DNA of 16,366 nt from IMG/VR virus record IMGVR_UViG_2698536392_000011. One strand, 5' to 3'. Below the pieces are notes generated by a model. It was given only the letters and a program-made list of their open reading frames with translations. It had not been told where the DNA came from and did not search any database. The DNA is from a virus (Duplodnaviria > Heunggongvirae > Uroviricota > Caudoviricetes). A program made the translations under genes and the position numbers. Below, in pieces: positions 13,694 to 14,924 of the stretch; within the stretch, counting starts at the first letter, position 1, and every line of letters starts with the position of its first letter.

Positions 13694-13700
13694 ATGTACT

Positions 13701-14273
13701 CTATTTATACAATACAGCACCGCTCTTTTTAGTTATATATGTGCAGTTCGATGGTATATCTTTATTTATAAAAGACATTGCACCTATTTTTACATTATCC
13801 CCAATTTTACGGGATAATCCAATGATGCAACAATTAGCTCCGATATCAACGTTGCTACCAATTTTTACTCTTGAACCAGGTATGTCACCATCTATCTGTC
13901 CAATGGTCGTATTCTGTCGTAACACCAGATTTTCACCAGCATCAACAGCAAAATGAACAACAATTCCAGCATGATGGGGAATTGTTAACCCTTTTCCAAT
14001 ATTTGCGCCCAATCCAATTTCGCAACCAAATTTGTTAATTATTTTACTGTTTAACTTCTTGGCTGCTTTCTTATGTAATTTATTACCATTAATATACATT
14101 TCGTTAGCCAACCGCCACCAGAAAAGGAAATTCCTGTTACGCTGCTTTTTCTCTCTTAAAAGCCTCCAGATATCCATACGTTTCCGCCGAATTACTTCAT
14201 GTTTCCAGAAGTTTTTTAAATTAGTAGAGTTCCCAAATAAAACAAAGTGAATTGCCATTAGGTAAGACAGCAC
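13701..14273 (-). CDS. Hexapeptide-repeat (left-handed beta-helix) O-acetyltransferase, CysE/WcaB/NeuO-like; AT-rich cargo gene (moron)
   Basis: ORF 13701..14306 (-). The product has the serine-acetyltransferase-family layout: FLFWWRLANEMYINGNKLHKKAAKKLNSKIINKFGCEIGLGANIGKGLTIPHHAGIVVHFAVDAGENLVL followed by IGSNVDIGANCCIIG...IGDNVKIGAMSFI hexapeptide repeats. Preferred start is GTG 14273 (AAGGAG at 14280-14285, 6-nt spacer); ATG 14258 and GTG 14306 are alternatives. The region is visibly AT-rich compared with its flanks (by eye, not computed). Confidence 0.8.
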   Translation of the reverse strand: MLSYLMAIHFVLFGNSTNLKNFWKHEVIRRKRMDIWRLLREKKQRNRNFLFWWRLANEMYINGNKLHKKAAKKLNSKIINKFGCEIGLGANIGKGLTIPHHAGIVVHFAVDAGENLVLRQNTTIGQIDGDIPGSRVKIGSNVDIGANCCIIGLSRKIGDNVKIGAMSFINKDIPSNCTYITKKSGAVLYK

Positions 14274-14324
14274 GATAATCTCCTTAATTATTATTTCAGA
14301 CCACACATGTTATAAGGTTAAGAG

Positions 14325-14353
14325 ATTATAAAATCCTGTTGTTTATTATTCAA
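14325..14353 (-). promoter_or_regulatory. Putative sigma70 promoter for the acetyltransferase gene (-35 TTGAAT, 17-bp spacer, -10 TATAAT)
   Basis: On the - strand: TTGAAT (complement of 14348-14353), 17 nt, TATAAT (complement of 14325-14330). Predicted start site around 14317, leaving a ~45-nt leader to the GTG 14273 start. Confidence 0.45.
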
Positions 14354-14429
14354 AAACAATTTTCTGAGAAGGACATACAACAGCAAGTCGCCAGTCACCT
14401 TCATCAGGAAATTGGCGACATACGTTAAA

Positions 14430-14924
14430 TCAGAGCAGCCCCTTAACTGAGCTGGCCGCGCTATTAAGGGATGATGTCACCTTATCTTTGAAGCCGGACA
14501 ACATATCGCTGAACGATGAGGATTGCAGGCGCTCCCGCAAATCCTCATCACAGCGTTCAAGAGTCAGTGAAAATTCTATCTTTTTCGCCTTACCGTAGCG
14601 ATCAAACTCGGAACGGGTCGTATTCGTTTCAGTCAGTACATACATGCCGTAAATCTGCCCGACACCATCAATCAGAGGCCAGGGCCGTCCTGTATATGCC
14701 TGCGTGGTCAGCAATGAAAGCGACACTTCGCCACCTGTAATTTCAGGATAAAGCACGCCGGAAAGCACAATGCGATCATCACCTGCACCGATATACTGCC
14801 AGCTTGCTGAACGGTTAACGCGTTCATTTTTCACATGCCGCCAGCTTTTGTTTTGCTGTAACTGCTGATGCGGCAATGTGCGCAGCTCAAAAACAAACAT
14901 GCCGTAGATCATCATCATGACCAT
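14430..14924 (-). CDS. U: Tail protein gpU
   Basis: MVMMMIYGMFVFELRTLPHQQLQQNKSWRHVKNERVNRSASWQYIGAGDDRIVLSGVLYPEITGG...GRPWPLIDGVGQIYGMYVL matches remembered P2 gpU (MMMVLGLFVF...YQELQ...RVNRSGAFQFLGIGDE...AWPLIDGTG). GGAG lies 6 nt upstream of ATG 14924, just after the T stop. Confidence 0.85.
   Translation of the reverse strand: MVMMMIYGMFVFELRTLPHQQLQQNKSWRHVKNERVNRSASWQYIGAGDDRIVLSGVLYPEITGGEVSLSLLTTQAYTGRPWPLIDGVGQIYGMYVLTETNTTRSEFDRYGKAKKIEFSLTLERCDEDLRERLQSSSFSDMLSGFKDKVTSSLNSAASSVKGLL

Follow-up and report, generated by a model that had tools for sequence, protein, structure and literature searches.

The stretch of DNA considered here (hereafter the window) comprises 16,366 nucleotides of a virus of the class Caudoviricetes, listed as IMG/VR record IMGVR_UViG_2698536392_000011. 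It corresponds to the late region of a P88-like Escherichia coli prophage (Xuanwuvirus, Peduoviridae) and is approximately 95% identical to phages P88, 500465-2, 520873 and phiSM over most of its length. Between its lambda-type tail-fibre assembly gene, tfa, and the tail gene gpU lies an islet of 766 nucleotides (positions 13658-14423), which holds one intact minus-strand gene for a predicted left-handed beta-helix (LbH, or hexapeptide) acetyltransferase and is the subject of this work. With 35.0% G+C for a window mean of 53.4% (standard deviation 5.2 among 766-nucleotide windows), the islet has the lowest G+C content of any 766-nucleotide window, the lowest one that does not overlap it reaching 46.2%, and the G+C content at third codon positions is 0.33 in the acetyltransferase gene, 0.40 in tfa and 0.55 in gpU. 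The G+C scan of the 13.6-14.5 kb region hence bears out the initial annotation, which had described a compositionally foreign single-gene islet, unlike its flanks. Its right edge, placed at 14430 in that annotation, proved essentially right, since homology with the P88-like phages picks up again at 14424.

The longest minus-strand frame of the islet spans positions 14306-13701 and its likely start is a GTG codon at 14273-14271, giving a gene of 190 codons plus stop (13701-14273, minus strand). RefSeq gives the same 190-residue product, WP_000954200.1, for a genome with 100% identity across 13600-14500, and the GTG is preceded, six nucleotides upstream, by the Shine-Dalgarno sequence AAGGAG (14280-14285, minus strand), so that both the size of the product and the strong ribosome-binding site had been correctly anticipated. 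Further upstream, a sigma-70 promoter-like site (14325-14353, minus strand) combines TTGAAT (14353-14348) and TATAAT (14330-14325) across a 17-nucleotide spacer and matches the consensus at 10 of 12 positions; such a motif is weak evidence on its own and is suggestive here by its position only. At the other end of the gene, a hairpin terminator with a 13-bp stem and a T-run (13664-13693) lies between the tfa and acetyltransferase stop codons and is common to the two convergent genes. Its predicted fold (-21.9 kcal/mol, z = -3.96) was equalled by none of 200 shuffles. A second stem-loop, GTCGCCA...TGGCGAC followed by a T-rich tract (14387-14419, minus strand; 10 nucleotides past the gpU stop codon), belongs to DNA missing from the P88-like relatives and could be a weak terminator by which the acetyltransferase gene is insulated from the tail operon. 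The -10 region and the bases that follow it, AUAAUCUCUU, are moreover complementary to the Shine-Dalgarno region, AAGGAGAUUAU (14274-14330, minus strand), both pairing arms being present only in transcripts that read through from gpU. Translational control of such transcripts by this pairing was considered and rejected, as the fold is no better than those of shuffled sequences (z = -0.7) and may be due to chance. No tandem repeats were found in 13600-14500, which disposes of a phase variation of the NeuO type, and Rfam returned in the islet sub-threshold matches only (Qrr and ncr1575), which we take as chance. Outside the islet, Rfam reports the candidate E. coli sRNA IS009 (RF02111) at 13422-13620 on the plus strand, with 177 bits for a gathering score of 117; this match lies wholly within the 3' part of the tfa coding sequence and coincides with conserved tfa coding DNA.

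Profile searches and structure prediction indicate that the product is an LbH acetyltransferase of the CysE/WcaB/EpsC branch, in agreement with the family first read from the sequence. Pfam detects Hexapep (E = 3e-5, 23.9 bits, slightly under the gathering score of 27) as well as Hexapep_2, and PF00132 is carried by many of the homologues, though no Pfam match to SATase_N was obtained in the 190-residue product. An AlphaFold2 model built with 42 homologues (pLDDT 85.5, pTM 0.84) comprises five N-terminal helices (residues 2-82) followed by a beta-helix. Its top Foldseek matches in the PDB are all LbH enzymes of the serine acetyltransferase (SAT) type, with TM scores of 0.6-0.7, a result biased toward SATs since the searches gave no WcaB- or EpsC-type structure. 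Judged by curated thresholds, the family falls outside CysE, WcaB, EpsC and NeuD/NeuO alike. Indeed, the best NCBIfam match, EpsC (NF041874), scores 74.8 bits for a cut-off of 150, the cysE models 61.1 for 210.65 (TIGR01172) and 36.1 for 397 (PRK11132), the WcaB models 53 for 196 (PRK10191) and 51.9 for 194.65 (TIGR04016), and the NeuD/NeuO-type model TIGR03570 30.5 for 160.8. Of the CysE/WcaB/NeuO-like kinship initially proposed, the hexapeptide fold of CysE/WcaB type thus stands, while the relationship to NeuO/NeuD is weak and no repeat tract accompanies it. The product also matches PHROG 2154 (E = 3.3e-86, residues 13-190), which is annotated as 'unknown function'.

Comparison with the CysE and WcaB proteins of E. 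coli K-12, taken from the K-12 genome record, is informative with regard to the active site. By BLASTP, the product is slightly closer to WcaB (35% identity over 103 residues, 3e-15) than to CysE (32% over 106 residues, 2e-9). Its His100 aligns with the catalytic His158 of CysE and is conserved in at least 90% of the 42 homologues, and Glu86 aligns with CysE Asp143, so that the acidic partner is also present. Structural work on SATs has established the serine-binding roles of CysE Asp92, Asp157 and Arg192-His193. Asp157 is replaced by His99, as in the 'HH' motif of WcaB, at a position that varies across the family; Arg192-His193, in the 'DRHP' segment, align to a non-conserved loop; a gap stands opposite the 'RDPA' segment, and the N-terminal region holding Asp92 is absent. 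Because all curated cut-offs failed and most of the serine-binding residues of CysE are missing, the name "serine acetyltransferase" given by RefSeq is probably wrong.

The position of the gene is best appreciated from the arrangement of its neighbours. The scaffold, capsid, lysis and baseplate genes, the tail-fibre gene H and tfa are read on the plus strand, and gpU and, from 14931 onward, the tape measure gene are read on the minus strand. The acetyltransferase gene is convergent with tfa, lies downstream of gpU and shares the strand of the FI-to-U tail operon; its earlier description as opposite to the late operon thus holds with respect to tfa but not to gpU and the tape measure gene, the FI-to-U operon being inverted. 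On the right, gpU (14430-14924, minus strand; Pfam Phage_P2_GpU, 5.5e-39) forms a conserved flank with 95% nucleotide identity to P88 from 14424. On the left, tfa (13079-13657, plus strand; 192 residues; Pfam Caudo_TAP, 1.1e-40; PHROG 105) is approximately 89% identical to lambda tfa at the nucleotide level and follows gene H (11076-13079; Pfam Phage_tail_fib, Phage_fiber_2 and Collar), whose variable C-terminal part (11541-13079, plus strand) is a module unlike those of P88 and 500465-2. The distal 215 residues of the fibre are 57-71% identical to the tips of T4-type gp37 long tail fibres. The fibre gene also contains three tandem 132-nucleotide repeats (100%, 91% and 66%) and two 45-nucleotide repeats encoding Gly-Ala-His-x-His-type motifs (11573-11968 and 12786-12932).

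The tfa-gpU interval of P88 and 500465-2 accommodates a further tfa in inverted orientation, together with an alternative fibre tip and a gene for a DNA invertase. The acetyltransferase gene is absent from both phages and from many E. coli prophages, and this comparison of the locus across related prophages confirms the gene as variable cargo. Since homology to 500465-2 breaks at 11540, inside the fibre gene, and resumes at 14424, the unit that was exchanged exceeds the islet and includes the fibre C-terminus, the lambda-type tfa and the acetyltransferase gene; homology to the P1-like phage-plasmid JL22 runs from 12036. Sequences like AAACCAAGGTTT, the crossover core of the invertase, occur in 500465-2 and JL22 and not in the window, and the slot holds neither an invertase nor a second fibre. 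A remnant of an invertible segment was rejected, since the cix/gix pattern AAACCRAGGTTT, which does detect sites in 500465-2 and at the extremities of the inverted repeats in JL22, gave no core beyond chance in the window, where no invertase was found either. To judge from these motifs, the prophage has a fixed fibre. What the slot has in common with the P2 Z/fun region and with the invertible C- and G-segment regions of P1, Mu and P88 is its place directly after the fibre assembly gene, but unlike them it is devoid of an invertase, a cix-like site and a second fibre. Its right flank is the 3' end of gpU, whereas in P2 Z/fun is followed by the FI gene. The initial annotation had equated the locus with the Z/fun hotspot of P2-like phages: a variable region after tfa, and a hotspot in general terms, is what was found, but in a P88-like phage in which the slot corresponds to an invertible fibre cassette with its invertase and not to Z/fun. 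The corresponding region of P2-like phages has been described in a preprint as a mixed-purpose hotspot with swapping of fibre and tfa genes, frequent invertases and other cargo (10.1101/2024.10.15.618418).

The region 13600-14500 is 100% identical to the chromosome of the Shiga toxin-producing E. coli (STEC) strain 2013C-3342, whose prophage lies beside the leuZ-cysT-glyW tRNA genes. Upstream of 12761 the window is only 95.7% identical to this genome and therefore comes from a different strain. In 2013C-3342, the gpW-like gene and the tail-fibre gene are annotated by RefSeq as frameshifted (15638-15968 and 17466-19480 of its stretch); their window counterparts, an open reading frame (ORF) of 116 residues at 9229-9579 and the fibre ORF at 11076-13079, are open. 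The window also carries, between the lysis and tail genes of the late operon, a cargo gene for a NanS-p-like sialate O-acetylesterase (DUF1737 and SASA, then DUF6645; 5657-7535, plus strand), which a one-nucleotide insertion near 6450 splits into ORFs of 273 and 341 residues, compared with an intact 626-residue gene in 2013C-3342. The two alleles are only 85% identical, and the split denotes a frameshifted pseudogene or else an error in the sequencing.

Several lines of evidence show that the acetyltransferase gene moves together with the fibre module. The block 12036-14199, which covers the fibre tip, tfa and the acetyltransferase, recurs at 93-95% nucleotide identity in the P1-like phage-plasmids JL22 and Ro157c2YLVW. 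In JL22, the gene (6666-7238) lies between tfa and U', at the centre of the invertible C segment and next to cin. This segment is delimited by 602-nucleotide inverted repeats (4374-4975 and 9236-9837) that are 99% complementary and bear cix-like cores at their outer ends (4379 and 9821), and its inversion would bring the acetyltransferase gene downstream of U' in the expressed direction. The JL22 gene has a different AT-rich upstream region, with a TTGACA-18-TAAAAT motif of its own, and a hairpin is found after U'. Among complete E. coli genomes, 510 of 5426, about a tenth, carry at least 80% of 13600-14500, with 94 places on plasmids, and the carriers among the matches listed are mostly O157:H7, O26, O111 and O103 strains. 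All IMG/VR loci in which the acetyltransferase is at least 85% identical and which have room downstream possess a convergent tfa 43 nucleotides past the stop codon (42 in the 85% locus). Members with 36-65% identity converge on a tfa of another type at a distance of 12-83 nucleotides (phiNP, yong2 and several IMG/VR contigs), the acetyltransferase and tfa ORFs even overlapping in 613R2. The pairwise identities of the acetyltransferases and of the adjacent tfa products co-vary (Mantel r = 0.73, reached by none of 2000 permutations), a correlation inflated by close relatives, and 613R2 provides a mismatched pair (36% for the acetyltransferase, 76% for tfa).

Other members of the family occupy different sites. 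Some are found at prophage ends, beside hok in E. coli or beside integrase and abortive-infection (Abi) genes, as in ESSI2_ev040, where a 45% homologue follows an abortive-infection gene and adjoins the integrase; in phiNP the homologue comes after hicAB, and in a Salmonella prophage remnant a member follows the fibre genes on the same strand. In two IMG/VR contigs (1591-2445 and 3753-5958), a 62% homologue is convergent to an HtrL/YibB gene with DUF1353, in the post-tfa slot of another temperate phage. The HtrL/YibB family occurs in lipopolysaccharide (LPS) loci, and the three genes suggest a small LPS-related cargo cluster. Close homologues are hence prophage or plasmid cargo and not housekeeping genes, as had been expected. 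A non-phage context was also encountered: in enteropathogenic E. coli (EPEC) adherence factor (EAF)-type plasmids, a 50% homologue (5001-5594 of the contigs) lies among IS66 fragments, a few kb from the bfp genes (prepilin peptidase, SLT).

The wider family, sampled with one genome per species, is represented by 80 species-level loci with identities of 40-70%, found in Enterobacterales, Orbaceae, Pseudomonas/Halopseudomonas and others. Most of their neighbours are not phage genes and few are phage tail genes, so that an exclusive association of the whole family with phages was rejected. Eight Rahnella-type loci place the gene between a POT transporter and a GGDEF protein. A NeuB-family gene is the downstream neighbour at 5 of the 80 loci, and at the one locus analysed in detail, in Halopseudomonas, a 40% homologue stands between msbA/hldE-like genes and a NeuB/GNAT/PseG-like nonulosonic-acid cluster. 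With regard to selection, none of the 58 full-length IMG/VR copies is disrupted, and the ratio of nonsynonymous to synonymous substitution rates (dN/dS), taken against the allele of the window, lies between 0.03 and 0.19 for dS values of at most 0.39. These values point to purifying selection and to a gene maintained as a working protein; a pseudogene or a decaying remnant is ruled out by the same data.

These observations establish the gene itself, its fold family, its foreign composition, its genomic context, its mobility and the purifying selection on it; from them we infer the acceptor substrate, the expression in the lysogen and the phenotype. The reading we favour, with a probability of about one in two, is that the gene encodes a cytoplasmic LbH O-acetyltransferase, carried as a moron, that modifies a precursor of a surface glycan and thereby brings about lysogenic conversion. 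Morons are autonomous cargo units of prophages, and the islet would be one of them, a self-contained unit of promoter, gene and terminator. Its product would be a soluble, trimeric-type LbH acyltransferase using acetyl-CoA, in a short CysE-like branch that includes WcaB and the EpsC of exopolysaccharide (EPS) loci. The acceptor would most likely be a sugar available on the cytoplasmic side, i.e., a nucleotide sugar, an undecaprenyl-linked repeat unit or a core intermediate of a surface glycan, and probably not L-serine. A sugar is favoured because of the glycan-related contexts of several homologues, the affinity with WcaB and EpsC and the absence of the serine site. If the gene is transcribed in the lysogen from the islet promoter, the enzyme would alter the cell surface, the most likely pay-off being a reduced adsorption of competing or related phages. 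The gene would have arrived within the distal tail-fibre module, made of the fibre tip, the lambda-type tfa and the acetyltransferase, in replacement of the invertible fibre-switching cassette of P88 and its invertase.

The product can be compared with several known enzymes. With WcaB and EpsC, short CysE-like enzymes, it shares the LbH branch, 35% identity to K-12 WcaB over the beta-helix and, for WcaB, the 'HH' motif at the catalytic histidine, both being small proteins with a short helical N-terminus. It differs from them by scores far under the curated cut-offs, by a longer and very basic helical N-terminal region of about 82 residues and by its genomic setting, as a lone AT-rich prophage gene outside wca or any other polysaccharide cluster. 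CysE has in common with it a helical N-domain followed by a beta-helix, the catalytic histidine and the best matches among solved structures, but not a SATase_N match, most of the serine-binding residues or the C-terminal tail. A functional precedent is provided by NeuO, the LbH O-acetyltransferase of the CUS-3 prophage of E. coli K1, which modifies a surface polysaccharide in the lysogen. The present gene is only weakly similar to the NeuD/NeuO-type model, has no phase-variable repeat tract, and its STEC carriers are not known to make polysialic acid. Finally, the O-acetyltransferases of serotype-converting phages, namely Sf6 Oac, D3 Oac and the GtrC type, are integral-membrane proteins of the acyltransferase-3 family and not LbH enzymes, whereas the product described here is predicted to be a soluble LbH enzyme. 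Their proposed biological logic is nonetheless the same, since these morons acetylate the O-antigen and change phage susceptibility (PMC13123978, PMC3630932).

A number of points weigh against the surface-glycan reading. The substrate is not readable from the sequence, and our literature searches on WP_000954200.1, on prophage- or tail-fibre-linked serine acetyltransferases, on CP-933T and on hexapeptide O-acetyltransferase morons retrieved no functional study. Five promoter-like sites were found in the AT-rich region for 4.6 expected from shuffles; the near-consensus promoter initially proposed hence retains its 10 of 12 matches and its plausible position, but the density of such motifs is at chance level. 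At 40-50% identity, most homologues from other genera are not beside phage or polysaccharide genes, and PADLOC-DB v2 gave no defence family at E values up to 1. The receptors of T4 gp37-type fibres include OmpC, a protein, as well as LPS; since the linked fibre tip resembles those of T4 gp37 and lambda Stf, with receptors including OmpC, masking of the phage's own receptor by acetylation of a sugar is not obvious. Furthermore, as the carriers span differing O-antigens (O157, O26, O111 and O103), the acceptor is unlikely to be an O-antigen specific to one serotype, and a structure common to the carriers would be needed as target. The authors who described JL22 stated that it is unknown why that phage-plasmid carries the gene (PMC9603915).

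A more elaborate version of surface modification, which we consider rather unlikely, is that the acetyltransferase is functionally coupled to the fibre module, the receptor-binding protein, its chaperone and a surface-modifying enzyme forming one exchangeable cassette, even in a P1-like invertible segment. A phage would then gain a new host-range determinant together with an enzyme by which the glycan that matches it, or a shielding one, is masked in the lysogen or on lysing cells, the target being shared by STEC serogroups, such as the LPS core, enterobacterial common antigen (ECA) or colanic acid.

It is improbable, though not without indications, that the gene serves in anti-phage or other conflicts by acting on a target that is not a surface glycan, for instance by acetylating a xenobiotic, another small molecule or some component of a phage, in the manner of the LbH xenobiotic acetyltransferases that modify antibiotics. 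The phage hotspot in which it lies is known for defence cargo (10.1101/2024.10.15.618418), and homologues neighbour an abortive-infection gene and an integrase in ESSI2_ev040, hicAB in phiNP and hok at an E. coli prophage end. Yet PADLOC found no match, no CatB/Vat-type xenobiotic acetyltransferase model is present among the best 25 of 28 NCBIfam matches, and no single-gene LbH defence system is described in the literature that we searched.

A still smaller probability attaches to a genuine, feedback-insensitive serine O-acetyltransferase, which would provide O-acetylserine for cysteine supply or for the CysB regulon and so aid the lysogen or phage production. SAT is the name used by RefSeq/PGAP and by phage records, all the best PDB sequence and fold matches are SATs, and both the catalytic histidine and the acidic partner Glu86 (CysE Asp143) are in place. 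However, the PDB support is biased by the lack of WcaB- or EpsC-type structures among the matches, the cysE score is far from its cut-off (61.1 bits for 210.65) with no SATase_N in Pfam, BLASTP brings the product closer to WcaB than to CysE, and Asp92, Asp157 and Arg192-His193 either lack a counterpart or have one that varies within the family. The C-terminal tail of CysE is linked to CysK binding, and the product, which ends in ...VLYK, is without it.

Least probable of all is a role in the lytic cycle with the fibre module, in which read-through from the gpU operon, or from U' after a P1-like inversion, would yield an enzyme that modifies either the fibre or receptors of the dying cell and so spares progeny from loss on debris: the gene has the orientation of gpU and lies directly downstream of it with only a weak hairpin between them, inversion of the JL22 segment would place it likewise behind U', and the convergent pairing with tfa persists in diverged members whose identities co-vary, but hairpins part the gene from the upstream late genes in both contexts, the linkage is explained by adjacency alone with a Mantel statistic inflated by closely related loci, mismatched pairs such as that of 613R2 exist, many homologues lie away from fibre genes, and no LbH enzyme is known to acetylate proteins.

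Prophage acetyltransferases that remodel surface polysaccharides are already known (NeuO, Sf6/D3 Oac and the GtrC type; PMC13123978), and the present LbH family is uncharacterised. Its interest lies in its occurrence in roughly one in ten complete E. coli genomes and on P1-like phage-plasmids, in its frequency among STEC and in its repeated association with fibre modules, under a database name, serine acetyltransferase, that the active-site comparison does not support. The gene is a genuine but fairly ordinary prophage cargo and, should it have no role at the cell surface, it would be one more uncharacterised moron. If, on the other hand, it acetylates a shared surface glycan, phage susceptibility would be affected, which would matter for the phage typing and phage therapy of STEC, and antigenicity might be affected too. 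Were the coupling to the fibre module real, the gene would define, among cytoplasmic LbH enzymes of lysogenic conversion, a new family that is common in O157, O26, O111 and O103 strains. With a surface-glycan role, its recurrent position after tfa, including within invertible fibre segments, would also add a class of cargo to the tail-fibre hotspot.

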